The translations under genes were made by a program, and so were the position numbers. 64,000 nucleotides of DNA from an uncultured Brevinematales bacterium (lineage in GTDB: Bacteria; Spirochaetota; Brevinematia; Brevinematales; CAZQBT01), in contig CAZQBT010000006.1 of assembly GCA_964591955.1 (NCBI GenBank), forward strand, positions 1,809 to 65,808, given 5' to 3'. Below, piece after piece: positions 3 to 34,143 of this stretch; the stretch's first letter is position 1; every line of letters begins with the position of its first letter. The notes below the pieces were generated by a model. That model worked only from the letters and a program-made list of their open reading frames with translations, was not told where the DNA came from and did no database searches.

Positions 3-1724
3 ACAACTTTATTAGAAGCTGCAAAAATGCTCAATATAAAAGTCCCGACTCTGTGTCAACACCCCGACCTGCTTCTTGCGGGAAATTGCCGAATTTGTGT
101 TGTCGAGGTTAAAGGCTCAAGAACGCTTCAGGCATCTTGCTGCACTCCTGTTCGCGATGGTATGGATGTATTCACAAATACGCAGATGGTTCGACGCTCA
201 CGTCGCCATACTCTTTCCTTATTGCTGTCCGAACACAATAACGATTGTGTCAGATGCTATAAGAACGGTAATTGCGAATTACAGGCTCTTGCTATGGAAT
301 ACGGTATTGAGGGGGAAACCTTTATCGATATTAGCGGCGACACGGCTATTGATATGTCTTCACCTTCCATTATGAAAGACGACAGCAAATGTATCAAATG
401 CCAACGATGTGTGAGAACATGTCAGGAACTCCAACAGGTAAGCGCGCTTGCGGTTGCCCATAAAGGAAATTCCATTAAGCTGACAACATTTATGGAAAAA
501 CCTTTGCATTTTGTAGTATGCACAAACTGCGGGCAATGCGTTAACCGGTGTCCTACGGGCGCATTAATCGAAAAAAGCTATATTAGCGAGGTTTGGAATG
601 CTTTAGATGACCCTGCCAAACACGTTGTTGTCCAGACAGCGCCCGCGGTTAGAGTTGCTTTAGGCGAAACTTTAGGTTATGACCCCGGCGAAAGAGTAAC
701 GGGCAAAATGGTTACCGCCCTGCGCCGTCTCGGATTTGATTCGGTCTTTGATACAAATTTTACGGCAGACCTTACCATTATGGAGGAAGGAACGGAGTTG
801 CTTATGCGGTTAAAATCTGCACTTGCCGATAAAAACCCTGCCGCTTTACCGCAGTTTACCTCTTGTTCGCCGGGATGGATTAAATATATTGAACACGAAT
901 TCCCGGATATTCTTGATTATCTTTCAACTTGTAAATCTCCTCAACAGATGTTCGGCGCAATTGCCAAGACTTATTACGCTCAAAAATCCGGTATTGACCC
1001 TAAAGATATAATAGTTGTGTCCGTTATGCCCTGCACGGCTAAAAAATTTGAAGCAAACCGCCCTGAAATGAATTCAAGCGGGTATCAGGACGTTGACTAC
1101 GTGATAACAACCCGCGAACTCGGTCGTATGATACGGGAGGCGGGTATAGACTTCAAGGAGCTTGAGGCTGGAGAATGCGACAGTCTTCTCGGAAAGCATA
1201 CCGGAGCTGCGGTTATTTTCGGTGCAACCGGCGGAGTTATGGAGGCAGCGCTTCGCACCGCTTATGAAATTATTACGGGGCGTGAAGTGCCTTTTGATAA
1301 TCTTAACATCACCCCCGTTCGCGGTATGGAGGGTGTAAGAGAAGCGACAATCAAAATCGAAGGATGCGTTCCGGACTGGAGTTTCCTTGAAGGTGCGGAA
1401 TTAAAAGTTGCAATCGCTCACGGGCTTTCAAACGCAAGAAAGGTTACAAAACAAGTTGCGGAGGGAAAGTCCCCTTACCATTTTATTGAAATTATGGCAT
1501 GTCCCGGGGGATGTATCGGGGGCGGCGGCCAACCTATCCCGACAAGTCTTGATATTAGACAGTTGCGTATGGATGCTATCTATAACGAAGATGGCGATTT
1601 GCCTCTGCGAAAATCCCATGAAAACCCGGAGATTACGCGTATTTACTCCGATTTCTTAGGAAAACCCCTAAGCCATAAATCACACGAGCTTTTGCATACC
1701 CATTACACAAAAAGGAAATGGTAA
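3..1724 (+). CDS. hydA: [FeFe]-hydrogenase catalytic subunit, group A (HndD/HydA-like), 5'-truncated by the window edge
   Basis: H-cluster motifs FTSCSPGW, MPCTAKKFE and EIMACPGGCIGGGGQP. N-terminal [2Fe-2S] (PTLC..CRICVVE..SC), His-ligated cluster (HNNDCVRC..NC) and two CxxCxxCxxxC clusters. The frame is open back to base 3 (TTLLEAAKM), so the true start is upstream. Confidence 0.95.
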   Translation, partial: TTLLEAAKMLNIKVPTLCQHPDLLLAGNCRICVVEVKGSRTLQASCCTPVRDGMDVFTNTQMVRRSRRHTLSLLLSEHNNDCVRCYKNGNCELQALAMEYGIEGETFIDISGDTAIDMSSPSIMKDDSKCIKCQRCVRTCQELQQVSALAVAHKGNSIKLTTFMEKPLHFVVCTNCGQCVNRCPTGALIEKSYISEVWNALDDPAKHVVVQTAPAVRVALGETLGYDPGERVTGKMVTALRRLGFDSVFDTNFTADLTIMEEGTELLMRLKSALADKNPAALPQFTSCSPGWIKYIEHEFPDILDYLSTCKSPQQMFGAIAKTYYAQKSGIDPKDIIVVSVMPCTAKKFEANRPEMNSSGYQDVDYVITTRELGRMIREAGIDFKELEAGECDSLLGKHTGAAVIFGATGGVMEAALRTAYEIITGREVPFDNLNITPVRGMEGVREATIKIEGCVPDWSFLEGAELKVAIAHGLSNARKVTKQVAEGKSPYHFIEIMACPGGCIGGGGQPIPTSLDIRQLRMDAIYNEDGDLPLRKSHENPEITRIYSDFLGKPLSHKSHELLHTHYTKRKW

Positions 1725-21461: not shown

Positions 21462-23105
21462 ATGACAAAAGAATTTTTCAAAACCCCGAAGGAGTTCAGG
21501 AAATTAGCTTCTCAAATCAGGACTACCGTCCAAACTGCATTTAACAGGAATAATGTAATTCCTATGGATTATCCAAAGGAGGCTTATCATTTGGCAAAAA
21601 ACAGTCCCGGAACCGTGGAACTTACGGGAATGCCTATTTATAAGCCCGAAGAACAGGGATTACCGTTCGGAGCAAATATGCTTCTTTTTAATGACGGGAC
21701 GGTGTTCGGCAGATGTGCTGCGGCAAGACGGATTCTCGGCGAACCTAACGTGGATTTAAAGGAATATTCCGCAAAAGTGCGCGAGGCTATCTATAAAACC
21801 AGATACAAAATGATGTATCACGCACAGGCTGTTATCGGGCTTGATAAAGATTTTATGATAAAAGCCCACCTGCTTATTCCCGAAAACCACGAAAATATAA
21901 TGTTGTCCTGGCTTTTGAATTTCCAGTATATAAGCGACAGGTATTATAATATGTATAAGGATTCGCGGGAACTTCCCGACGGAGACATCTACATCTTCTC
22001 CGACCCCGACTGGTCTCATCCCGACCATCCGCTCGGCTTGACTTTTTTTGACCCGGAAAACAACGTTGCGGTATTGCTCGGTATGAGATATTTCGGCGAA
22101 CATAAAAAAGGCACGCTTACATTATCATGGGGAACTGCGACACGCAACGGTTTTGCATCCTGCCACGGCGGTTTAAAACGTTACAACCTTGATAACAACA
22201 AAAAATATGTTGTCGCCGTTTTCGGACTTTCCGGTTCGGGAAAATCCACTATCACACATGCCAGACATAATAACAAATACAATATTACCGTTCTTCACGA
22301 TGATGCATTCATTATTAACCTGAAGAATAAGTATTCCATTGCGCTTGAGCCGGCTTATTTCGACAAGACTCAGGACTATCCTATGGACTGCGAAGATAAT
22401 AAATTTATACTTACATTGCAAAATTGCGGTGCATTTTTGGGCGAAGACGGCAAAGTTTATCCCGTTACGGAGGATATCCGCAATAGGAACGGGCGCGCCG
22501 TTAAATCAAAACTTTGGTCTCCCAACAGGGTTGACAGGATTGATGAGCCGATTAACGCCATTTTCTGGCTTATGAAAGACCCCACTATCCCCCCTGTAAT
22601 CAAACTAAAAGGGGCATCGCTCGGCTCCGCTATGGGCGCTACTCTTGCAACCAAACGCACTACCGCGGAACGTCTTGCTCCCGGCGTTGACCCTAACGCT
22701 CTTGTGGTCGAGCCTTATGCAAATCCGTTCAGAACCTACCCTCTTGAGAAAGACTATTCCGCTTTTAAAAATCTTATTGAAGAGGGCGTGGACTGTTATA
22801 TCCTCAATACCGGAATGTTTATGGACAAAAAGGTTAAACCCGAACACACTCTCGGCGTTATTGAGGCTATTATCGAGGGTAAGGCTAAATTCGAGAAATG
22901 GGGCAACCTCTCCGATATTGAAATTTTAAAAGTTGACGGGTTTAATGCGGAATTTACCGATAAAAATTACAAAGAAGAGTTTATCAAGCGATGGAATGAC
23001 CGTATAAACTATATTAAATCAAGAGATACGGAAAAAGGCGGAGTTGATAAACTCCCGTCGGATGCATTAGAATCGTTGGAAAAGGTATTAAAAGAATTGG
23101 GATAA
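21462..23105 (+). CDS. pckA: Phosphoenolpyruvate carboxykinase (ATP), atypical clostridial-like type
   Basis: YFGEHKKG, CHGG, FGLSGSGKST, HDD, RNRNGR and ANPF motifs. Confidence 0.82.
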   Translation: MTKEFFKTPKEFRKLASQIRTTVQTAFNRNNVIPMDYPKEAYHLAKNSPGTVELTGMPIYKPEEQGLPFGANMLLFNDGTVFGRCAAARRILGEPNVDLKEYSAKVREAIYKTRYKMMYHAQAVIGLDKDFMIKAHLLIPENHENIMLSWLLNFQYISDRYYNMYKDSRELPDGDIYIFSDPDWSHPDHPLGLTFFDPENNVAVLLGMRYFGEHKKGTLTLSWGTATRNGFASCHGGLKRYNLDNNKKYVVAVFGLSGSGKSTITHARHNNKYNITVLHDDAFIINLKNKYSIALEPAYFDKTQDYPMDCEDNKFILTLQNCGAFLGEDGKVYPVTEDIRNRNGRAVKSKLWSPNRVDRIDEPINAIFWLMKDPTIPPVIKLKGASLGSAMGATLATKRTTAERLAPGVDPNALVVEPYANPFRTYPLEKDYSAFKNLIEEGVDCYILNTGMFMDKKVKPEHTLGVIEAIIEGKAKFEKWGNLSDIEILKVDGFNAEFTDKNYKEEFIKRWNDRINYIKSRDTEKGGVDKLPSDALESLEKVLKELG

Positions 23106-23116
23106 ATTCATCACGA

Positions 23117-23141
23117 GCGCTCTTCGGAGCGCCTTTTTTTT
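23117..23141 (+). terminator. Rho-independent terminator after pckA
   Basis: GCGCTC-TTCG-GAGCGC followed by a T-run. Confidence 0.85.
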
Positions 23142-23420: not shown

Positions 23421-24134
23421 ATGGAAGGAGATTTAAGCGTACTCCTCGCAGCTTCTGCCTCAATCGGATTTCTACACACTATCTTAGGACCTGATCATTA
23501 TATTCCGTTTGTAGCGATTGCGCGCGCAAGAAAATGGTCGCTTCTCAAAACGTCTCTGGTTACTTCTGTTTGCGGATTGGGACATATAGCGGGTTCCGTT
23601 ATTCTCGGTATTATAGGTATCGCACTCGGAACAGCTATTTCTCAAATAGAAGTTATAGAGGAGTTTAGAGGCGATATTGCGGGATGGTTATTAATAGGTT
23701 TCGGGCTTGTTTATATGATATGGGGAATACGCCGCGCAATAAAAAACAAACCCCATACCCATACCCACACACATCCCGACGGCACAACGCATCTGCATAA
23801 GCACACCCATAACAAAGAGCATTCACATATTCACGCGGAGGACAAGCCTGTGTCGGTAGTACCATGGACGCTTTTTATTATCTTTGCGTTCGGACCATGC
23901 GAACCTCTAATCCCGATTTTGATGTATCCCGCTTTACAACATAATATCGGCGGGGCGGTTTTAGTTACAGCCGTTTTCGGTGTAGTTACTATTGCTACGA
24001 TGCTCGGAGCCGTAATTGCGCTTTATCTTGGAGTAAAGGTGCTTCCTTTCAAGCGATTTGAACGGTATGCTCACTCAATTGCGGGGGCGGTAGTCTTACT
24101 TAGTGGTATCGCTGTGGTGTTTTTAGGATTGTAA
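23421..24134 (+). CDS. His-rich nickel permease / accessory membrane protein (UreH/NiCoT-like)
   Basis: HTILGPDHY motif, GHIAGS, His-rich loop HTHTHTHPDGTTHLHKHTHNKEHSHIH and GPCE; first gene of the hydrogenase operon. Confidence 0.8.
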   Translation: MEGDLSVLLAASASIGFLHTILGPDHYIPFVAIARARKWSLLKTSLVTSVCGLGHIAGSVILGIIGIALGTAISQIEVIEEFRGDIAGWLLIGFGLVYMIWGIRRAIKNKPHTHTHTHPDGTTHLHKHTHNKEHSHIHAEDKPVSVVPWTLFIIFAFGPCEPLIPILMYPALQHNIGGAVLVTAVFGVVTIATMLGAVIALYLGVKVLPFKRFERYAHSIAGAVVLLSGIAVVFLGL

Positions 24135-24168
24135 ATAGTTTTCCAATAAAATTATAACGGAGGTAATT

Positions 24169-25236
24169 ATGGAATATGCGGTATTGCCGAAAAGCGGTTA
24201 TGATAAATTCATATCGTTTTTAGCAAAACAAAAAAAACTCGTCGCTCCCGTTTATAAAGGTAATAACCATTACGCTTTTGAGCCTGTAACTAACGCCGAA
24301 CAAATCTCGCTTAGTTATATCCCGACAATTCTACCGCCTAAAAAATATTTTATGCCTCAATACGAAACGCTTGTCGAATACGATACCCACGAAGGACAAA
24401 ATATGCAGGCGGTTGTCGAATTAGAGGATTTAATACTTTTCGGTGTCCATACCTGCGACATTGCGGGAATTCAATGCCTTAATATGGTTTTTATCGACCG
24501 TCCGAGAGACCTGAACTACCTTATACGAAAAAACCACATTATTATCATAGGCTTTGAATGTAATAACTATTGCGACTCCGATGCTTCCTGCGGACTTATG
24601 GATACCTACAATCCCAATGGCGGTTACGACTTGTTTCTAACCGACCTCGGCGATTATTTCCTTGTCCATATCAGCACGCATGCCGGCGAGGAATTGGTTG
24701 TAAAAAGCAAAGCCTTTGAAGATGTAAAACCCAATCATTTTGAGGATTTAAAAGCGCTTCGTAAAAAGAAAGAGGGGATATTCAAGCCGGAAGTTCCTGT
24801 CAATCGCGATGATATTCCGAAGATGTTTGAAGAGGGATTTGACTGCGAGGTTTGGGAGGAAATCGGAAACCGTTGTCTTTCCTGCGCAAACTGCACAAAC
24901 GTATGTCCTACGTGTTATTGTTTTGACGTTAAAGACATACCTAACCTCGACCTCAAAACGGGAAAACGTATCCGTATTTGGGACTCCTGCCAAAACGAAC
25001 CTTTCGCAAAGGTTGCCGGCGGGGAAAGTTTCCGTGAAAAACGCAAAGACCGTAAACGCCATCGTTTCAACAGGAAATTTAATTATCCCGTTAAACGGTA
25101 TTCCCGCTTTTTCTGCACGGGTTGCGGAAGATGCACAAGGGTATGTATGGCGGAAATAAATCTTAAAGAAACAATAGTTGCTCTTGCCGAGCAAACGGGT
25201 TATATCAAAAAGTCCGCTAAGCAGGAGGTAAAATAG
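24169..25236 (+). CDS. hyhB: Group 3b (sulf)hydrogenase beta subunit (Fe-S)
   Basis: PPKKYF, GVHTCD, CLSCANCTNVCPTCYCF, WDSC and CTGCGRCTRVC motifs. Confidence 0.88.
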   Translation: MEYAVLPKSGYDKFISFLAKQKKLVAPVYKGNNHYAFEPVTNAEQISLSYIPTILPPKKYFMPQYETLVEYDTHEGQNMQAVVELEDLILFGVHTCDIAGIQCLNMVFIDRPRDLNYLIRKNHIIIIGFECNNYCDSDASCGLMDTYNPNGGYDLFLTDLGDYFLVHISTHAGEELVVKSKAFEDVKPNHFEDLKALRKKKEGIFKPEVPVNRDDIPKMFEEGFDCEVWEEIGNRCLSCANCTNVCPTCYCFDVKDIPNLDLKTGKRIRIWDSCQNEPFAKVAGGESFREKRKDRKRHRFNRKFNYPVKRYSRFFCTGCGRCTRVCMAEINLKETIVALAEQTGYIKKSAKQEVK

Positions 25237-26073
25237 ATGGAAAAAATATTAATCAACCGCTCAGGTTATAGAATCAAAGAAGCCAAAATCCTGCGCACGA
25301 AAAAGATGACCGAAACGGAAAAACTCTTTGAAATTGGACTCGCCGACGGCGATTCGCTTGATTACGACCCGGGTCAATTTGTAGAGGTATCACTTTTCGG
25401 CGTGGGTGAAGCCCCTATCTCGATTTGTTCCTCCCCGACAAAAAAAGGGAGTTTTGAAATGTGCGTAAGGTCAATCGGACGTTTTACAAGCGCGATGCAT
25501 CGCCTCGAAAAAGGCAATGAAATCGGTATCCGGGGACCTTTCGGCGTAGGTTTCCCTGTCCGTCATCTTGAAGGTATGGATATTTTAATGGTAGCCGGCG
25601 GGTTGGGTATCGCACCGCTTCGCTCGCTTATCAATTATATACTTGACAACCGTCGCGACTACGGTAAAGTTATGATTCTCTTAGGATGCCGTAATCCTAA
25701 AAGTATGCTTTTTAGCGATGAGGTTGACGGATGGGGTAAGCGAATGGATGTCAATTTTAATTGCACGGTCGATAAAGCCGACCCCGACTGGCAGGGTAAT
25801 GTCGGCGTTATCACCTCGCTTATTCCCGGTGTTGACATCAACCCCGAAAAAACCTATGCCGTTGTTGTCGGACCTCCCGTTATGTATAAATTCGTTATAT
25901 CGGAAATACTGAAAAAAGGTATCCCCGACTCGAGAATTCTTGTCTCATTGGAACGTCATATGAAATGCGGGCTCGGTAAATGCGGACATTGCCAAATCCA
26001 CGATATTTATTGTTGTCAGGATGGTCCCGTATTTTTCTATGACCGCATAAAAAATCTAAAGGGGGCAATATAA
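25237..26073 (+). CDS. hyhG: Group 3b (sulf)hydrogenase gamma subunit (FAD/NAD(P)-binding)
   Basis: PGQFV..GVGEAPISI, RGPFGVGF, AGGLGIAP and LERHMKCGLGKCGHC..DGPVF motifs. Confidence 0.9.
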   Translation: MEKILINRSGYRIKEAKILRTKKMTETEKLFEIGLADGDSLDYDPGQFVEVSLFGVGEAPISICSSPTKKGSFEMCVRSIGRFTSAMHRLEKGNEIGIRGPFGVGFPVRHLEGMDILMVAGGLGIAPLRSLINYILDNRRDYGKVMILLGCRNPKSMLFSDEVDGWGKRMDVNFNCTVDKADPDWQGNVGVITSLIPGVDINPEKTYAVVVGPPVMYKFVISEILKKGIPDSRILVSLERHMKCGLGKCGHCQIHDIYCCQDGPVFFYDRIKNLKGAI

Positions 26074-26837
26074 TGAATAATAAACCAAAGGTAGCATTTT
26101 TCGATTTTGCTTGTTGCGAAGGGTGTCAGCTTCAGGTAGCAAATCTCGGAGAGGCTCTTATAGATATTCTCGAAATTGTTGACGTGGTGGAATTTCGTGA
26201 GGTTATGAGCGAAAAATGGAATGAAAGCTACGATGTCTCCATTATAGAAGGTAGTATTACTACTCCTCACGCCGTTGAGCGGATTAAAAAAATCCGCGAG
26301 CGCTCAAAATTCCTTATTGCTTACGGCTCCTGTGCAACAATCGGCGGCGTCAACGGTATGAAACATAATTTCGACCTTGAAGAAATCCGTAATTATGTCT
26401 ATAAAGACGGCGCCAGATATTTCGACACCATTCCCACCAAAGCTGTTCATGAGGTCGTCAAGGTTGATTATTTTGTTCACGGATGCCCAATATATCCGCC
26501 GGAATTTCTTGAGGTTTTAAAATCCGCGCTTTCGGGATTGCCTTACTCTGTCCCCGATAACGCGGTATGCGTGGAATGTAAATTTAATGAAAATGTCTGT
26601 ATGTATGAAAAGGGATTAACCTGTGCGGGTCCCGTTACGCGCGCGGGATGTAACTCTTGGTGCGTCAATAACGGAAATATCTGCTACGGATGTCGCGGGC
26701 TTGTTTCCAATCCCAATGAAAACGGCTTTGCCGAAGTCCTTAAAAAATACAAAATTTCCGCCGAATATATTATCGGCAAGATGGATATGTATAATTCTTG
26801 CAGACTTCAAAATGAAAAGTCTAAAAAGGGAGCATAA
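26073..26837 (+). CDS. hyhS: Group 3b [NiFe]-hydrogenase small (delta) subunit
   Basis: CCEGC, EGS, GSCA and HGCP motifs, plus a C-terminal Cys-rich cluster region. Confidence 0.92.
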   Translation: MNNKPKVAFFDFACCEGCQLQVANLGEALIDILEIVDVVEFREVMSEKWNESYDVSIIEGSITTPHAVERIKKIRERSKFLIAYGSCATIGGVNGMKHNFDLEEIRNYVYKDGARYFDTIPTKAVHEVVKVDYFVHGCPIYPPEFLEVLKSALSGLPYSVPDNAVCVECKFNENVCMYEKGLTCAGPVTRAGCNSWCVNNGNICYGCRGLVSNPNENGFAEVLKKYKISAEYIIGKMDMYNSCRLQNEKSKKGA

Positions 26838-26839
26838 CT

Positions 26840-28171
26840 ATGGGCAGGAATGTAAAAGTTAATGTGGAATATTTGACCCGCGTTGAGGGTCACGGTAATA
26901 TAGTTGTAAACGTGAAGGATGGAACTCTTGATGAATGCCATCTCGACATTGTGGAAGCCCCGCGTTTTTTTGAGGGTATGATTCGCGGACGCTCTATTTT
27001 TGAAGCCCAGCATATTACCTCAAGAATTTGCGGTATATGTGCTTGCGGACATACTCTCGCATCGCTTCAGGCGGCGGAGGATGCTATCGGGTTTACACCC
27101 TCCAAACAAACCAACGCTCTTCGCAAACTGCTTCTGAATATGGAGATATTGGACAGTCATCTGCTTCATATTTATATACTTGTCGCACCCGACCTTTTGG
27201 GGGTAAAGAGTTTCGTTCCGTTAATTGCAAGTCATAATCAGGTAGTCCGTCGCGCATTGCGTATGAAAAAGACCGTCAACGACGTTTGCGCGCTTTTTGC
27301 AGGAAGGCATATTCATCCTATAACCTCAATAGTCGGCGGCTTTACAAGACTTCCGCGCGAGAAAGACCTTGAGGCAATGCTCGGCTTACTTGAAGGAATG
27401 GTCTCCGATATGAACGCCACAGTGGAACTTGCCGCGACACTCACTTTCCCGGATTTCCATCGTGAAACCGAATATATCGGGCTTGTGAATGATGAAGAAT
27501 CTTATCCGATGCTTTACGGCGATATTGGTTCTACCGACGGTGTTCGTATGAATAAAAAGGACTACAAAAAGGCTACTAACGAATTTGTTGTCCCTCACTC
27601 CTCCGCCAAGCATACGAAACTTTCTCGAAGTTCTTATGCGGTGGGAGCTTTGGCAAGACTAAATCTCAATTTCGATAAACTCCGCAAAGAGGCTAAAGAG
27701 ATTGCTAATGCCATAGGGCTTAAACCCATCACAACAAACCCGTATCTTAACACCGCCGCGCAATTAGTCGAGTGCGTTGAGTGCTTATACGATTCTATTG
27801 ATATAGTAAAAAGCCTTCAAAAGTCCGGTGTTAATTATGAAGAGGAAATAGTGGTGGGATTAAACGAACAAAACCGTATTCCCGTTAAAGCCGGTATAGG
27901 GGTTGGAGCTGTTGAGGTGCCGAGAGGGCTTCTTTATCATTGCTACGAGGTTGACGATAAGGGTAAAATTATTAACGCCGATTGTATTATCCCTACAAAC
28001 CAAAACGTCAATAATATAGAACACGATATGCGTAAACTTGTGCCTGAAATCCTCGACAAAACCGATGAGGAAATTACTCTTGCGCTTGAAATGCTTGTCC
28101 GCGCCTACGACCCCTGTATATCCTGCTCGGCACATTTTCTGGATGTTAAATTTGTCGGAAAAAGAAGTTAG
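26840..28171 (+). CDS. hyhL: Group 3b [NiFe]-hydrogenase large (alpha) subunit
   Basis: TRVEGHG, EAPRFFE, L1 SRICGIC, EVPRG and L2 RAYDPCISCSAH, plus an 11 aa C-terminal extension. Confidence 0.95.
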   Translation: MGRNVKVNVEYLTRVEGHGNIVVNVKDGTLDECHLDIVEAPRFFEGMIRGRSIFEAQHITSRICGICACGHTLASLQAAEDAIGFTPSKQTNALRKLLLNMEILDSHLLHIYILVAPDLLGVKSFVPLIASHNQVVRRALRMKKTVNDVCALFAGRHIHPITSIVGGFTRLPREKDLEAMLGLLEGMVSDMNATVELAATLTFPDFHRETEYIGLVNDEESYPMLYGDIGSTDGVRMNKKDYKKATNEFVVPHSSAKHTKLSRSSYAVGALARLNLNFDKLRKEAKEIANAIGLKPITTNPYLNTAAQLVECVECLYDSIDIVKSLQKSGVNYEEEIVVGLNEQNRIPVKAGIGVGAVEVPRGLLYHCYEVDDKGKIINADCIIPTNQNVNNIEHDMRKLVPEILDKTDEEITLALEMLVRAYDPCISCSAHFLDVKFVGKRS

Positions 28172-28634
28172 GGCAGCGCTTAAACCGTCAAGCGACGGTC
28201 TAACCCTCATTATTACAATCGGGAACGCTTTAAGAAAGGACGACGGCGTAGGTCCATATATAGCGGAGAAAATAAAACAATCACTTCCGGAAAATATTGC
28301 GCTGATTAACGCCGGGGACACCCCTGAAAATTGTATAGATGAGGCGGTCGGGTATAACCCAAAAAAGGTTATATTTATAGATGCGGGGAATTTCGATGTA
28401 AAACCGGGAACCGTATCTGTAATTCCCGAAGATGCCATACCGCAGAATTCTTTAAGCACCCATTCTTTCCCTCTGCCGATAGTCTGCGGTATTATCAGAG
28501 AAGATACGGGGGCGGAAATTGTTTTTATCGGTATTCAGATAAAAGACATTTCTTTCGGCGAGGGAATTTGCTCGGAGGTAAAATTCGGCGCAGATAAAAT
28601 TATTGAAATAATAGAGGAGACAATAAATGCATGA
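28143..28634 (+). CDS. hycI: Hydrogenase maturation endopeptidase (HycI-like)
   Basis: IGNALRKDDGVG, IDA and STHSFPL motifs. The likely ATG at 28143 overlaps the end of the large-subunit gene. Confidence 0.88.
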   Translation: MLNLSEKEVRAALKPSSDGLTLIITIGNALRKDDGVGPYIAEKIKQSLPENIALINAGDTPENCIDEAVGYNPKKVIFIDAGNFDVKPGTVSVIPEDAIPQNSLSTHSFPLPIVCGIIREDTGAEIVFIGIQIKDISFGEGICSEVKFGADKIIEIIEETINA

Positions 28635-28869
28635 ACTTCATCTTTTAAAGGATTTGATGGCGGATATATTAAAAATAGCAAAAGAGGAAAAAGCCGAAAA
28701 AATCACAAAGATTTATCTTCGGATGGGTGAATTTACCGAAATCAATCCCGAAATACTTACATATTACTTTGATGAACACGGCAAGGGAACTATTATCGAA
28801 GGAGCGACAATCAATATCGAGAAAAGCCCCGAAAGAGAGCTAACCCTGCTGTCGTTTGACTGCGATTAG
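28627..28869 (+). CDS. hypA: Minimal HypA (Ni metallochaperone) lacking the Zn-finger
   Basis: MHE N-terminus, GEFTEINPE, GTIIEGATINIE, then directly RELTLLSFD with no CxxC pairs. Confidence 0.85.
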   Translation: MHELHLLKDLMADILKIAKEEKAEKITKIYLRMGEFTEINPEILTYYFDEHGKGTIIEGATINIEKSPERELTLLSFDCD

Positions 28870-28877
28870 GAGAGCGT

Positions 28878-30194
28878 ATGTGCTATGCTATTCCGGGAAA
28901 AGTTTCCGCTATTGAGGATAATATCGTAACCGTTGACTATTTCGGTGAAAAAAAACGAGCCTATAATGAATTCGACAATCTTAAAATCGGCGATTATATA
29001 TACGCACAGGGCGGATTCGTAATAAAGACTATCCCTCCCGAAGAGGCAAACTCTATACTTGCGGTTTGGCGCGAAACCTTTTTTGAACTTCAGGAGCATG
29101 ATTTGCGTCTGTCTCGTATTGATATTGAAAAAAGCGGAGTTGAAAAACGACTTACTCTTATTCTCGACAAGGCAATCGAGGAACGCCCGCTCAGGAAAGA
29201 CGATTTTTTATACCTGCTGAACCTTCGGGACAGCGATTCAAAGAACCTGCTTTACAAAACGGCAAATTTTTTACGTCAAAAATACCTCGACAATTCCTGC
29301 TGCGTTCACGGAATAATTGAGCTTTCAAACTACTGCGCGCGAAATTGTTATTATTGCGGTATTTCGGTTCACAACAGCAAAATCCCGCGATACCGTATGG
29401 ATAAAACCGAGATACTCTCAACCGTTGAAAGCGCCGTAGAAAAATACGGGTTTAAGGCTCTTGTGCTTCAATCGGGAGAAGACCCCGCTTTCGATACGGA
29501 CTTTTTTTGCGATATTATCCGTGAGATTAAATCACGTCATGCAGTCTTAATATTTATCAGCTTCGGTGAAACGGGCTTGAAATCCCTTGAAAAATTATAC
29601 GAGGCAGGAGCGCGGGGGCTTCTACTGCGCTTTGAAACATCCAATCCCGATTTATACCGAAAACTCCACCCCGGTTATGAGCTTCACACCCGCATTGAAC
29701 ATATAAACTATGCAAGGGAACTCGGCTACCTGATAATAACGGGAGGGCTTACCGGTATTCCGGGACAAACAAACCGCGATATTCTAAACGACATCCTGCT
29801 TACCAAAGAGCTCGGGGCGGAAATGTATAGCTTCGGACCTTTTATACCTCACCCCGATACGCCGCTCGGCACTCATCCGATTACAACAAGCGAAAATATA
29901 TTAAAAACAATAGCCGTATCCCGAATAGTTGACCCTCAAAATGCCAAAATTCTCGTTACCACCGCGTTTGAAACAATAGATAAAGAGGCGAGATTATCGG
30001 GGCTTATGAGCGGGGCAAATTCGGTTATGCTTAACGTAACGCCTGAAAACCTGCGGGAAAAATATTCGATATACCCAAACCGCGCACATAACGAGGAAAG
30101 TTTGCAAATCCAGATTGATGACACGCTTTCGCTGCTGTATAGTCTCGGACGCGCACCCACCGATTTAGGCGTAAGCGGGAACAGGCAAGTCTAA
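28878..30194 (+). CDS. HypC domain fused to a HydE-like radical SAM enzyme
   Basis: Residues 1-~66 MCYAIPGKV..GDYIYAQGGFV..EEA (HypC). Then IELSNYCARNCYYCG, VLQSGED, LLRFETS, GIPGQT, GPFIPHPDTPL, GANSVMLNVTP and YSIYPNR (HydE-like). One uninterrupted frame. Confidence 0.85.
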   Translation: MCYAIPGKVSAIEDNIVTVDYFGEKKRAYNEFDNLKIGDYIYAQGGFVIKTIPPEEANSILAVWRETFFELQEHDLRLSRIDIEKSGVEKRLTLILDKAIEERPLRKDDFLYLLNLRDSDSKNLLYKTANFLRQKYLDNSCCVHGIIELSNYCARNCYYCGISVHNSKIPRYRMDKTEILSTVESAVEKYGFKALVLQSGEDPAFDTDFFCDIIREIKSRHAVLIFISFGETGLKSLEKLYEAGARGLLLRFETSNPDLYRKLHPGYELHTRIEHINYARELGYLIITGGLTGIPGQTNRDILNDILLTKELGAEMYSFGPFIPHPDTPLGTHPITTSENILKTIAVSRIVDPQNAKILVTTAFETIDKEARLSGLMSGANSVMLNVTPENLREKYSIYPNRAHNEESLQIQIDDTLSLLYSLGRAPTDLGVSGNRQV

Positions 30195-30601
30195 CTATGC
30201 TTTAAAAGTATTTCTTTTTCGATATGGTAAATCTCAAAGCGGTATTGCTCAATGCGTTTTATATTTTCAAGCGAAATCCCGAAACATTCCAATTTAGCGC
30301 ATTCCTCAATAACGCGAAACGCTTCCTCGGCACGCTTAATATTCGCCTTAACTAAATCCGTCAAACCGCTTCGGTTTTCGCTTCCGTATTTCAACACCCC
30401 TTTTCCTACGTCGTCCCGACTTTCTCTCGCTTCAATAAGCGCGCTATCGGGGAAAAGTGTCCTCAAAAAATGACGTATTTCTTTTAGATGAGTGGAGTTT
30501 ATTTCATCATCAAACACAAATCTGCAAATATCCTCAACCACCCGAAGCCCCTCGCATGCACGGTTGATGTTGGCATCAAGCATACGATAAACCTTATCCA
30601 T
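30191..30601 (-). CDS. Stand-alone ThiD2-like domain protein (N-terminal domain of long ThiE)
   Basis: RMLDANINRACEGLRVVEDICRF, ARESRDDVG, ANIKRAEEAFRVIEE and RFEIYHIEK motifs; ATG overlaps the hisG stop. Confidence 0.75.
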   Translation of the reverse strand: MDKVYRMLDANINRACEGLRVVEDICRFVFDDEINSTHLKEIRHFLRTLFPDSALIEARESRDDVGKGVLKYGSENRSGLTDLVKANIKRAEEAFRVIEECAKLECFGISLENIKRIEQYRFEIYHIEKEILLKHS

Positions 30602-31226
30602 CAAGCGCGCCCTTGATATCCGACACGAATTTTTCAATAACATTGAGCTTGTGATAAAAACTCGCGCGATTACATATCAGGCGGGCTGTTGAATCAAAAA
30701 TTTCCTCGATAGCAACAAGCCCGTTTTCCCTGAGGGTAGCGCCTGTGGAAACAATATCCACAATACAATCCGCCATTCCGGCTATTGCCGAGAGTTCAAC
30801 AGAGCCGTATAATTTGATAATCTCCGCCTGTATGGAAATATTCGAAAAGAATTTCTTTGCGATATTGGCGTATTTTGTTCCTACCTGAAGGAAATCCGAT
30901 GATAAAACGGATTTGGGGTCAATGTCTTTAGATACCGCAACAACCATTTTACAATACCCGAAACCCAAATCAAGCAACTCCAAAACGTCGCAGTGATGTT
31001 CCAATAAAACGTCCTTGCCGACTACGCCAATATCGGCGGTTCCTTTTTCAACATAAGTCGGCACATCCTGCGCACGGACAAGCAATACCTTTATTTTATC
31101 GTTAAGATTGAAAATCAGTTTACGCGAATCCTTCGGCACGCCGTTTTTTATTACCCCGGCTTTAAGCATAAGTTTTTCCGTATCCTCGCCTAACCGTCCT
31201 TTAGGTAACGCAATAGTAATCATCAA
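30594..31226 (-). CDS. hisG: ATP phosphoribosyltransferase, short form
   Basis: IALPKGRL, RAQDVPTYVE, DLGFGYC, LYGSVEL and IVDIVSTGATLRENGL motifs; 210 aa. Confidence 0.95.
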   Translation of the reverse strand: MMITIALPKGRLGEDTEKLMLKAGVIKNGVPKDSRKLIFNLNDKIKVLLVRAQDVPTYVEKGTADIGVVGKDVLLEHHCDVLELLDLGFGYCKMVVAVSKDIDPKSVLSSDFLQVGTKYANIAKKFFSNISIQAEIIKLYGSVELSAIAGMADCIVDIVSTGATLRENGLVAIEEIFDSTARLICNRASFYHKLNVIEKFVSDIKGALDG

Positions 31227-31240
31227 AAACTCCTCAAGCC

Positions 31241-31615
31241 TTAACGGTCAAACCGTGTGGGCTTTCCATCCTCATCAACGGCAACCATCACAAATTTAGC
31301 ATCCGCCACCTCAAATATTTCGCCGCTTTTGAGACGCTCCCCGCGAATCCTGACATTAACGTCAAGCGATGAATTACCCACCCTGCAAATTTCAGCATCC
31401 ATAATAACCAAGTCCCCGACCCTGACGGGAGCAAGAAAACTAACCTCTTTCACCGATGCGGTTACAACGTTAGTCCTGCAATACTGGGAGGCAAGAGTGT
31501 AAGCCAAATTATCCGCCGAAAGCATAATAATCCCGCCGTGAACGTTACCGTAATGGTTGGCATCTCTGGGCATTACGGTAAAATTCGATGACAGCTTTTT
31601 ACTTCGCGACATCAC
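31241..31615 (-). CDS. Hotdog-fold acyl-CoA thioesterase (YciA-like)
   Basis: PRDANHYGNVHGG, VVTASV..FLAPVRVGD and VAVDEDGKP motifs. Confidence 0.88.
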   Translation of the reverse strand: MMSRSKKLSSNFTVMPRDANHYGNVHGGIIMLSADNLAYTLASQYCRTNVVTASVKEVSFLAPVRVGDLVIMDAEICRVGNSSLDVNVRIRGERLKSGEIFEVADAKFVMVAVDEDGKPTRFDR

Positions 31616-33813
31616 AAATACCTCGTATTATATAATTCGGTTGCCTCATCAAGCGAAATATCGACTAAGTTTTCTCCCTTATTCGATATGGAAATACGAT
31701 TATCGCTTGTAACGTTACCGATTGTATTAAAAGGAATTTTATATTTATCCGCCAAACCGAGTATATCCTCTTTATTATTACCGGAGTAGGAAATAATAAT
31801 ACGGGACTGGGTTTCGCCGAAAAGCAATGCTTCAGCGGGAATATCCTCATCAAGCGAAATATCTGCGCCGAACTTGACGGAGTTTACGGCACACTCCGAA
31901 ACCGCTACGGCAAGCCCGCCGTCGGATATATCCTGCGCGGAGTTTACCAATCCCTTGTCGTTAAGCTCCCGGATAAGTTTTTGTAATGCCGCTTCAAAGT
32001 CAATATCGAATTCGGGACATTTGCCTGCAATTTTTCCGCAAACCTTTTCCAAGAAAAGCGAACCGCCGATTTCGTTTTTATTTTCGCCCAAAACCCCGAT
32101 TTTATCGCCTGCTTTTTTAAAATCGGAAAGCAGGATTTTCTTATAATCGTCAATAACACCGACCGCCCCGACAACTATCGTAGGCAGGATAGGTTCGCCG
32201 TCCGTTTCGTTATACAGGGATGCGTTTCCTCCGGTAACCGGCGCGGATAAAACCTCACAGGCTCGCCCCATCCCCTCAATAGCCTTGGCAATCTGGTAAT
32301 ATACGGCGGGCTTTTCGGGGCTGCCGAAATTAAGGCAGTTGGTTATACCATACGGTTCTGCGCCCATGCAGGATATATTCCTGCACGCCTCGGCAACCGA
32401 CTGCATACCCCCGACATAAGGGTCAAGATAGGTATAACGCCCGTTCCCGTCGGTGGTAACGGCAATTCCTTTTGTAGTCCCTTTTACGCGAAGCATCGCC
32501 CCTCCCGCCATCACCGGCTCTGCAAGGAGATTTGTTTGAACGTGATGGTCATACCGCTCATAGACCCATTCTTTAGATGCGATATTCACATCGGAAAGAA
32601 GACGTTTGAGCATATCCGTGTAAGAAATATCCATAGTAAAATCAGGCAGGCAGGTTGCTTTATCAAGGTATTCGGGAAAAATAACATCACGAACATACTG
32701 AGGCGCATCATCAACAAGATGGGTTACCGAAAGGTCGGCTTTAATAACCCCGTTTTCCTTAACGACTACGCGTGGTTTTTCCAATTTATCGGAGGTTACC
32801 TTGCCGAAAACGGAATAATCAAGTTCCCACTTTTCCATAACTTCAATGACCGCGTAAAGTTGAGAGGGTTCAATCACGGCGACCATTCTTTCCTGACTTT
32901 CGGACAAGAGAAATTCATAAGCAATCATATTCTCTTCGCGCGCCGGAATTTTGTCTATATAAATTTCAATAGAGGATTTGCCCCGTGAAGCCATCTCACT
33001 GGTGGAACTGGTAATACCTGCAGCGCCCATATCCTGAATACCGACAACAAGGTTTTTATCAATGAGTTCCAAAGTGGCTTCCAAGATAAGTTTTTCGGTA
33101 AAAGCATCGCCGACCTGCACGGAGGGACGCTTATCCTCGCCCTCGGAAGATAATTCGGCGGAGGCGAAAGTCGCGCCGCCAAGCCCGTCCCGTCCGGTTT
33201 TTGAACCGTAGTAAAATATAAGATTATCCTTACCCTGAGCAATAGCTTTGCAAATCTTATCGCGTTTAGCAAGCCCCACGCACATAACGTTCACAAGAGG
33301 GTTGCCCTCGTAACTGTCCTCAAAAACCACCTCGCCTGCAACAGTCGGAACGCCGACACGGTTTCCGTAATCACTGACACCGTCTATAACCCCGCCGACA
33401 ATATAACGGGTGCGTTTGGAATCCCGTTTTCCGAAACGAAAGGAATCCAACGAGGCAACGGGAAAAGCTCCCATAGCAAAAATATCGCGCAGAATACCGC
33501 CTATACCGGTTGCCGCACCCTGATACGGTTCTACCGCAGACGGATGGTTATGGCTTTCTATCTTAAATACAATAGCGTAATCATCAAACCCGACAATGCC
33601 GGCATTCTCACCGGGGCCTTGTATTATATGCTTGCCTTTAGTGGGAAGTTTTTTAAGTAAAGGACGGGTATTTTTATATCCGCAATGCTCACTCCATAAA
33701 GCTCCATACATACCGATTTCCTCAATCGTGGGGATGCGTCCAAGCTCTTTTTCTATCAACTCAACTTCAGATTTTGAAAGTCCGGCTATCTCAATCGCCT
33801 TTTTTAAATCCAT
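31612..33813 (-). CDS. purL: Phosphoribosylformylglycinamidine synthase subunit PurL (small type)
   Basis: WSEHCGYK, KIESHNHPSAVEPYQGAATG, QDMGAAG, LSESQERM and NCLNFGSPE motifs; likely ATG at 33813. Confidence 0.96.
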   Translation of the reverse strand: MDLKKAIEIAGLSKSEVELIEKELGRIPTIEEIGMYGALWSEHCGYKNTRPLLKKLPTKGKHIIQGPGENAGIVGFDDYAIVFKIESHNHPSAVEPYQGAATGIGGILRDIFAMGAFPVASLDSFRFGKRDSKRTRYIVGGVIDGVSDYGNRVGVPTVAGEVVFEDSYEGNPLVNVMCVGLAKRDKICKAIAQGKDNLIFYYGSKTGRDGLGGATFASAELSSEGEDKRPSVQVGDAFTEKLILEATLELIDKNLVVGIQDMGAAGITSSTSEMASRGKSSIEIYIDKIPAREENMIAYEFLLSESQERMVAVIEPSQLYAVIEVMEKWELDYSVFGKVTSDKLEKPRVVVKENGVIKADLSVTHLVDDAPQYVRDVIFPEYLDKATCLPDFTMDISYTDMLKRLLSDVNIASKEWVYERYDHHVQTNLLAEPVMAGGAMLRVKGTTKGIAVTTDGNGRYTYLDPYVGGMQSVAEACRNISCMGAEPYGITNCLNFGSPEKPAVYYQIAKAIEGMGRACEVLSAPVTGGNASLYNETDGEPILPTIVVGAVGVIDDYKKILLSDFKKAGDKIGVLGENKNEIGGSLFLEKVCGKIAGKCPEFDIDFEAALQKLIRELNDKGLVNSAQDISDGGLAVAVSECAVNSVKFGADISLDEDIPAEALLFGETQSRIIISYSGNNKEDILGLADKYKIPFNTIGNVTSDNRISISNKGENLVDISLDEATELYNTRYL

Positions 33814-34143
33814 ATCATACTCCAAGAAAGAATGTCCTATATTATACAATAAAACGAAGGATTTTGCATATTTTGAAAGACAAATAATCGGCAGGCTCAC
33901 TACAAGAAAAATAATTTTTAAAAGCCCGGATGAAATCTTAATCTCCAAAATTGACTTTTTTAAACTCAAACTATACACTTTAGTCGGTCCGGTTTTTGGA
34001 GCATTTCATATTTAATAACTAATTCGTAAATCAACAAAGTCTTATTGCTGTTACACCAATCACGCGGTCAAAATCAAAAAAGCCGAATTTAGCAAAAACC
34101 CTATTATTATGCTATAATATAATACATTATTACGGAGATTTTT

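Follow-up and report, generated by a model that had tools for sequence, protein, structure and literature searches.

A 64,000-nucleotide stretch of DNA from an uncultured Brevinematales bacterium (GenBank assembly GCA_964591955.1, contig CAZQBT010000006.1), here called the window, carries a [NiFe]-hydrogenase operon at positions 23421-30194, whose last gene joins the maturation protein HypC to a radical S-adenosylmethionine (SAM) domain. An earlier note on this DNA had described eight tightly packed or overlapping genes that end against a convergent gene, and the open reading frames (ORFs) bear this out: all eight lie on the + strand, successive intergenic distances are 34, 0, -1, 2, -29, -8 and 8 nt, and the stop of the last gene is overlapped by 4 nt by the end of a convergent stand-alone ThiD2-family gene (30191-30643, - strand). 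The families were checked with Pfam and NCBIfam profiles (E, expectation value; G, C and L numbers denote genomes, contigs and loci, G000 being the organism's own genome):

23421..24134, + strand: His-rich membrane protein, predicted Ni/Co transporter (Pfam DsbD_2, E 5.5e-9; weak NCBIfam RcnA match, E 3e-4)
24169..25236, + strand: group 3b beta subunit, iron-sulfur (sulfhyd_HydB, E 6.9e-73; Fer4_22)
25237..26073, + strand: group 3b gamma subunit, flavin adenine dinucleotide (FAD)/NAD(P) and 2Fe-2S (PRK08345, E 2.8e-89; sulfhyd_HydG, E 1e-72)
26073..26837, + strand: group 3b delta (small) subunit (sulfhyd_ShyD/HydD, E ~1e-49; Oxidored_q6)
26840..28171, + strand: group 3b alpha (large, NiFe) subunit (top PDB match sulfhydrogenase 1 alpha, E 6.6e-70)
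28143..28634, + strand: HycI-type maturation endopeptidase (TIGR00142 hycI, 122.9 bits, cut-off 119.1)
28627..28869, + strand: zinc-free HypA of 80 amino acids (aa) (PF01155 match confined to positions 1-68; no CxxC pairs)
28878..30194, + strand: HypC-HydE* fusion, 438 aa (HypC, PF01455; radical SAM; BATS)
G000:C24:29607-31103, + strand, outside the window: HydG, likely partner of the fusion (439 bits, above cut-off)

By its gene content, the operon is predicted to encode a group 3b [NiFe]-hydrogenase. The beta-gamma-delta-alpha order brings together iron-sulfur, FAD/NAD(P), small and large subunits, and the alpha subunit, nearest to sulfhydrogenase alpha, has both CxxC metal motifs, the PRG arginine, the PT threonine and a cleavable C-terminal tail after His432, the same motifs as in large subunits from genomes with HypD. 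Gene order, NiFe motifs and top family and PDB matches all resemble those of the Pyrococcus sulfhydrogenases SHI and SHII (PDB 9NEZ, 5YXY); unlike these, the four subunits form a bacterial branch whose best matches are sulfhydrogenase profiles, yet under the archaeal equivalog cut-offs of NCBIfam, and the genes imply a maturation free of HypD, HypE and HypF. The start of the protease is most likely the ATG at 28143, judging from the N-termini of homologues. The short HypA keeps an N-terminal MHE, which we take to be its nickel-binding motif.

The fusion protein consists of a HypC domain (residues 1-65), a linker and a radical SAM barrel. The HypC domain scores 47.9 bits against PF01455 (cut-off 28.5) and has a cysteine, Cys2, directly after the initiator methionine that is invariant in a 22-row alignment. 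It has Gln44 at a position that is Gln in 193/193 fusions versus His in 10/10 stand-alone HypCs, and that we take to correspond to E. coli His51. The barrel, which the earlier note had left as a radical SAM domain, is assigned to the HydE type by its radical SAM motif, its TIGR03956 score (258.5 bits, barely over the 254.6 cut-off) and its fold. In an AlphaFold model with a mean predicted local distance difference test (pLDDT) value of 87, where residues 1-3 and 66-70 fall under 50, the best structural match is Thermotoga maritima HydE, with a template modelling (TM) score of 0.93 on the target and 38% identity.

Distribution of the fusion, HypD and HydG across genomes

The window has no hypB, hypD, hypE or hypF, as the earlier note had stated; a single weak HypE-profile match (C6:34569-34889) falls inside ORF 31612-33978, which we take to be PurL-like. 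The claim holds for the whole genome, which is 95.31% complete with 0.52% contamination on 120 contigs: profiles for HypD and HypB match nothing in it, and those for HypE and HypF match only far under the cut-off. Searches with tblastn, using HypB, HypC, HypD, HypE and HypF from relatives, confirm the result for HypB, HypD, HypE and HypF, and find one NiFe large subunit and one HypC, namely the fusion. The genome further encodes HydG, HydF, a separate canonical HydE and two [FeFe] enzymes, on five different contigs. Its HydG resembles the tyrosine lyase that makes [Fe(CO)2(CN)(Cys)] (PDB 4WCX; TIGR03955) in profile score and in keeping the dangler His and the C-terminal auxiliary-cluster cysteines.

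The best HypF match in the genome is a 528-aa protein (G000:C7:42659-44245, - strand; L001:1468-3054) that has just the C-terminal domains of HypF. The HHxAH, DGxGxG and GRLFD motifs are absent from it, whereas 11/11 HypFs from canonical kits, including short ones (frames of 353-390 aa), have them, and the loss of these motifs rules it out as a working short HypF. On this sequence evidence the protein is read as a relic. Such C-terminal (Kae1-like) relics, of 528-538 aa, occur in at least three genomes of the order, away from hydrogenase genes (orthologues at L230:6720-8333 and L231:6297-7892), and may have a new role; none was found in G005 or G181.

Relatives of the fusion are encoded on 401 stretches of a species-genome collection, of which the best 80 were fetched as fusion loci; the first 50 of these define a whole-genome test set in which the completeness of the genomes is not given. 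HypD and HypE are each found in 0/50, including the single-chromosome records G005 and G050, and HypB in 5/50. HydG scores over the cut-off in 46, is partial or split in 3, and is represented in 1 by a ThiH-like protein only (the ThiH label being inferred). HydF occurs in 25/50 and an [FeFe] enzyme in 26/50; 24 genomes lack both, and HydG is kept in 23 of these 24, again including G050. Unlike the usual HydG, the protein is thus retained in fusion genomes without any [FeFe]-hydrogenase, often next to the fusion and sometimes joined to it. A normal hypABCDEF set elsewhere, the finding that the earlier note had set against its own view, was encountered neither in the organism's genome nor in the 50 other fusion genomes, two of them single chromosomes. 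The description of the kit as reduced needs amending: HypD, HypE and HypF appear to be replaced by the fusion and HydG rather than simply lost, and HydF, missing in 25/50, is dispensable and was rejected as a required partner.

A panel of 301 genomes from the Omnitrophota, the phylum of G013, gave the same picture; five of its members are also in the 50-genome set. A HypC domain is present in 151 genomes: its frame is short in 108 and 372-917 aa long in 41, and the other 2, both with partial HypD, are unlisted; 10 of the 41 fusions were checked by sequence and the remainder classed by frame length. HypD accompanies stand-alone HypC in 108/108 genomes and fused HypC in 0/41; for HydG the counts are 22/108 and 41/41, respectively. 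An [FeFe] enzyme is missing from 19 of the 41 fusion genomes, and among the 181 panel genomes that lack one, HydG occurs in 19/19 fusion genomes versus 5/162 others. A large subunit was called in 153 panel genomes at a cut of E 1e-10, picked after the scores were seen and removing 23 weak matches: 109 have HypD, 41 the fusion and 3 neither. No hidden fusion was found in these three or in two genomes with weak large-subunit matches. Fisher tests on these co-occurrences ignore kinship and overstate the association because the genomes are kin; a tree-based count is the fairer measure.

Within the window's own order, a HypC domain is found in 12/34 genomes, always in long frames. HypD is present in 0/5 of the fusion genomes tested there. 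Large subunits are present in 5/5 genomes tested for them, in three of these as two kinds. The fusion gene stands apart from the hydrogenase genes in 5/5 fetched stretches, which fits the expectation for a general maturase.

Taken together, the fusion and HypD are mutually exclusive across genomes, and the fusion stays with HydG even without an [FeFe]-hydrogenase or HydF. This genome-level exclusion and retention strongly support the earlier note's suggestion of a remodelled pathway rather than scattered genes. Because the fusion excludes HypD and nearly always accompanies HydG, the iron-carbonyl-cyanide centre is likely built by an undescribed, [FeFe]-derived route. Read from the genes, the HypC-HydE fusion and HydG likely stand in for HypD, HypE and an intact HypF during assembly of the iron portion of the active site.

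The same data bear on a more mundane account, in which canonical genes were lost from the assemblies, or the degraded HypF works with unrecognised partners, and the fusion serves [FeFe] enzymes as an additional HydE, or else the NiFe protein is metal-free. In its favour are the 120 contigs and two [FeFe] enzymes of the organism's genome, the fusion's score over the HydE cut-off, and the HypF C-terminal homologue, truncated HypFs being known (PMC5350229). It must, however, contend with HypD at 0/50, 0/41 and 0/5 in fusion genomes, single-chromosome G005 and G050 included, against 108/108 in same-panel controls; with the 24/50 fusion genomes that have no [FeFe] enzyme; with the separate canonical HydE in the organism's genome; with a HypF relic that has lost its three motifs and went undetected in both G005 and G181; and with metal ligands and a protease under purifying selection. 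We regard this account as very improbable, and as largely refuted already.

Operon slot, triple fusions and the short HypA

The synteny of the cassette, which the earlier note had proposed to survey, follows one pattern: alpha, protease and mini-HypA are followed by either hypFCDE or the fusion. In five loci from HypD genomes (L245, L252-254 and L257), hypF-C-D-E comes directly after alpha-protease-miniHypA, and the same slot holds the fusion in the window and in L142 (G181). The fusion thus occupies the operon slot of hypFCDE in sister genomes.

In L142, the gene in this slot (L142:9651-12395) encodes a 915-aa HypC-HydE-HydG triple fusion that closes a group 4-type NiFe operon. Eleven more clusters share this architecture, at 65-74% and 43-45% identity, some of them from Nitrospirae, and a single assembly error was rejected on this ground. 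The triple fusions have two different HydG cysteine patterns and require 3 label changes on the tree, 2 of them forced, and the architecture therefore probably arose more than once.

The short HypA does not mark the new route. Among 12 HypD-bearing genomes with operons fetched, the same ~80-aa HypA occurs in 10, a full-length HypA in 1 and none in 1 stretch; being common to canonical HypCDEF kits, it was rejected as a marker, and the nickel arm is therefore reduced independently of the iron arm. Of the two lost features on which the earlier note had built, the HypC histidine, now Gln44, stands as support, whereas the HypA zinc finger is not tied to the iron route. Canonical kits of Omnitrophota (L249, L251-L259) mostly have a short HypF (353-390 aa frames) without the N-terminal domains, a mini-HypA and usually no adjacent HypB.

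Compared with the canonical HypABCDEF pathway (E. coli HypC/HybG-HypD scaffold; PMC11565642), the system retains the HypC fold with Cys2, a HypA, the endopeptidase, the operon slot and the large-subunit motifs. It differs in having no HypD, HypE or intact HypF, in usually missing HypB (45/50 genomes) and, here, in having no zinc-finger HypA. Its HypC domain, unlike canonical HypC, has the conserved His replaced by Gln, carries a radical SAM barrel and is not a stand-alone partner of HypD.

Proposed route to the active-site iron

Residues of the barrel were mapped to T. maritima HydE numbering by alignment in 193 fusions, which were picked by their N-terminal motif so that Cys2 is fixed by construction, and compared with 5 canonical HydEs. 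Like T. maritima HydE (PDB 3CIW, 7O1O, 7O1T; TIGR03956), the fusions have CxxxCxxC and the equivalents of E58, V105, Q107, S136, L157, R159, E161, M224, T269, M291, Y303 and Y306, these twelve being conserved in at least 189/193. Unlike HydE, they have R54 changed to His and H52 to Cys in 193/193, R155 to Gly or Ala, T134 to Phe or Cys, and a new Glu365, and the C-terminal auxiliary-cluster cysteines are lost. The K309 equivalent is Arg in 174 and Lys in 19, including 9/11 triple fusions, and the full canonical barrel set (R54, T134, R155, K309) is not found in the fusions. Cys142 and His144 are present in 193/193 fusions and 0/5 canonical HydEs. The fusion also differs from HydE in its N-terminal HypC domain, in the lack of HydF or HydA from roughly half of the genomes that have it, and in coexisting here with a canonical HydE. 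We assume functional roles for R54, T134, R155 and R159 in HydE.

In the canonical [NiFe] route, cyanide and CO come from carbamoyl phosphate, whereas here both would derive from tyrosine via HydG. We consider it moderately probable that the HydG product, complex B, is de-cysteinylated by a radical step, held by Cys142/His144 and Cys2, and converted with the spare cyanide to Fe(CN)2CO, which HypC delivers. As described for [FeFe] systems, HydG would cleave two tyrosines to give [Fe(II)(CN)(CO)2(cysteinate)] and a spare cyanide. The HydE-like barrel would take up the iron complex at the conserved SAM-proximal site, where an adenosyl radical would add to the cysteine sulfur as in HydE; the outcome would be a cysteine stripped from the iron, instead of a sulfur left for dimerisation. 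Cys142/His144 and the HypC Cys2, the latter in the role of HypD Cys41, would then capture the iron at the remodelled lower barrel, where a single CO would give way to the spare cyanide. The HypC domain would pass Fe(CN)2CO to the apo large subunit, into which mini-HypA would insert nickel without HypB before the protease trims the tail.

Several of these steps have precedents in published work. Complex B sits beside the SAM cluster of HydE and the radical adds to its sulfur; calculations point to a C-S cleavage assisted by K309 and E58, and M224/M291 bind the iron (PMC8855341, PMC11826987); the second HydG cyanide is not part of complex B (PMC8855341). In the canonical route, Fe(CN)2CO is held between HypC Cys2 and HypD Cys41, and HypC alone has been proposed to deliver it (PMC11565642).

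The barrel residues also bear on a different division of labour, in which HydG supplies free cyanide and CO (or an Fe(CO)(CN) complex A) and the fusion, as a scaffold akin to HypD, puts Fe(CN)2CO together, its radical SAM site not carrying out HydE-type sulfur adenosylation. The co-occurrence, slot and triple-fusion data fit this equally well, it avoids the CO/CN mismatch, and the rebuilt lower barrel (the R54, R155 and T134 replacements, the new Cys142 and Glu365) speaks for it. Set against it are the HydE SAM-proximal residues and both methionines, which are almost invariant in the fusions, and the dangler His, kept in all 35 HydG sequences printed, which points to an iron-bound product. We judge such a scaffold to be rather unlikely.

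The client enzymes bear on which cofactor is made. In 127 large subunits, the CxxC motifs, PRG arginine and PT threonine/serine are alike under either kit, with one locus giving no motif match. On a FastTree phylogeny of 125 of them (two incomplete rows excluded; two row pairs come from the same genomes), the kit label changes 12 times, 8 of these forced by well-supported branches, versus 33.6 in shuffles. Cross-kit pairs are up to 88% identical, and the alpha subunit of the window shares 76.5% identity with a HypD-genome counterpart. Judged by the tree neighbours of this subunit, the organism is probably a spirochaete of the Brevinematales. Among 11 pairs of fusion loci, the ratio of nonsynonymous to synonymous substitution rates is 0.03-0.08 for alpha (10 informative pairs) and 0.05-0.12 for the fusion (8 informative pairs). 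Unchanged motifs, intermixed kits and low ratios therefore suggest a working enzyme that most likely carries the standard cofactor.

Should the proposed route run without ligand exchange, the enzymes would carry a new NiFe(CO)2(CN) active site. This would match the published HydG product, Fe(CO)2(CN), and there is no evident protein dedicated to cyanide transfer; the PRG arginine and PT threonine, which we take to be cyanide-pocket residues, are nevertheless kept in fusion-genome as in HypD-genome large subunits, and the two classes are intermixed as described. Such a site appears quite improbable. The full route with exchange, the scaffold and the NiFe(CO)2(CN) site share one claim, namely that HydG and the fusion replace HypDEF.

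A number of observations weigh against the full route. The HydG product as published has 2 CO and 1 CN, the opposite of the NiFe site, and the CO/CN exchange that is needed is unobserved. The K309 equivalent is still Lys in some fusions and is therefore no clean marker of changed chemistry. The placing of Cys142, His144 and Glu148 is a prediction from the model, in which they alternate along one strand and would therefore point into the lumen at the distal end of the barrel. In the organism's genome there is the HypF-like relic, hydG is unlinked to the operon, and HydG, HydE and HydF are also accounted for by the two [FeFe] enzymes. G042 has a sub-cut-off HydG/ThiH-like match only and three Omnitrophota genomes have a large subunit and neither kit, all of which may be assembly gaps. 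Finally, most assemblies are drafts, related genomes are not independent, and the genome-wide HypF search covered 6 genomes.

In its general form, a second radical-SAM route quite probably builds the [NiFe] iron-carbonyl-cyanide centre from tyrosine with two proteins, HydG and HypC-HydE* (sometimes one polypeptide); it would be interchangeable with HypCDEF, serve group 3b, group 4 and other large subunits in many phyla, and link both hydrogenase classes, its boldest form being the new NiFe(CO)2(CN) site. To our knowledge, [NiFe] and [FeFe] hydrogenases are held to have wholly separate cofactor assembly lines. HydG feeding the NiFe site, if true, would overturn the indispensability of HypD, HypE and HypF and offer a two-gene or one-gene alternative for producing active [NiFe] enzymes in heterologous hosts. 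It would make testable the HydE radical step on complex B, the fate of the second HydG cyanide and nickel insertion without HypB. Fusion proteins are at present labelled HydE, HydG or biotin synthase, and with such annotation [FeFe] capacity would be misstated and functional NiFe enzymes overlooked, which concerns 41/153 NiFe-bearing genomes in the Omnitrophota panel.

The protein families are known and the pathway is new, its chemistry being hypothetical. A literature search, which fell short of most subscription journals and of supplements, returned no description of the fusion or of HydG-dependent NiFe maturation. PMC6349859 and PMC10066038 report these hydrogenases, with main texts that do not contain "matur-", HypC or HydG and supplementary tables that could bear on the question; the available sections of PMC9324843, PMC9431212 and PMC5350229 do not describe the fusion, and PMC5350229 notes a truncated HypF1.

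Gene neighbourhoods and minor observations

Among the 120 best protein matches to the fusion, 118 carry a HypC domain on a radical SAM protein, and the two exceptions are shorter and partial-looking. Record titles of the 80 fetched loci include Margulisbacteria/Saganbacteria, Omnitrophota, Atribacterota, Spirochaetota, Elusimicrobiota and others. In their flanks of up to 10 kb, often ended by contig ends, a NiFe large subunit occurs at 67 loci, a protease at 64, HypA at 48, HydG at 36 (22 within ~1 kb), an [FeFe] enzyme at 10, the permease at 6 and HypB at 1; HypD, HypE and HypF were found at 0/80 within the fetched flanks. The enzymes beside the fusion include ones of group 3b and group 4-type and a twin-arginine translocation (Tat)-type enzyme, as inferred from similarity and context. 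The putative nickel permease of the window was rejected as a core part of the new kit, since it stands at 4 of the fetched canonical-kit loci and at only 6/80 fusion loci; this His-rich membrane protein is an accessory, not specific to the kit.

At 34/80 loci, a protein with Put_DNA-bind_N and CoA_binding domains, which we take to be a Rex-like regulator, lies near the fusion (e.g. L091:14397-15026) and suggests redox control of the kit. Matches to a Rex-box pattern required up to 4 mismatches and were not used, and a scan for promoters and terminators gave counts at chance (15 vs 15.1; 10 vs 8.5).

Upstream of the operon, the window encodes a divergent 547-aa phosphoenolpyruvate (PEP) carboxykinase (21462-23105) that scores under the NCBIfam cut-offs, with a terminator-like hairpin at the end of its gene (23117-23132). 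Further upstream, 22 kb from the operon, is a likely bifurcating [FeFe]-hydrogenase with partners resembling NuoE and NuoF (window 27-1724; G000:C6:86-3529), and a second [FeFe] and NuoE/NuoF-like cluster is on contig C10.

A fusion subtype of 392-393 aa, with ~40 linker residues missing, often comes directly after HydG (L143:7531-8709, L144:8582-9757, L145:9519-10694). In one of L042 (733-aa ORF) and L205 (G166), the large subunit is apparently fused in frame to the small subunit, and in the other to the protease, possibly through a frameshift or assembly error. At L147:4775-6754, a Tat-type NiFe small subunit (660 aa) with C-terminal bacterial Ig-like domains adjoins hydG and the fusion.

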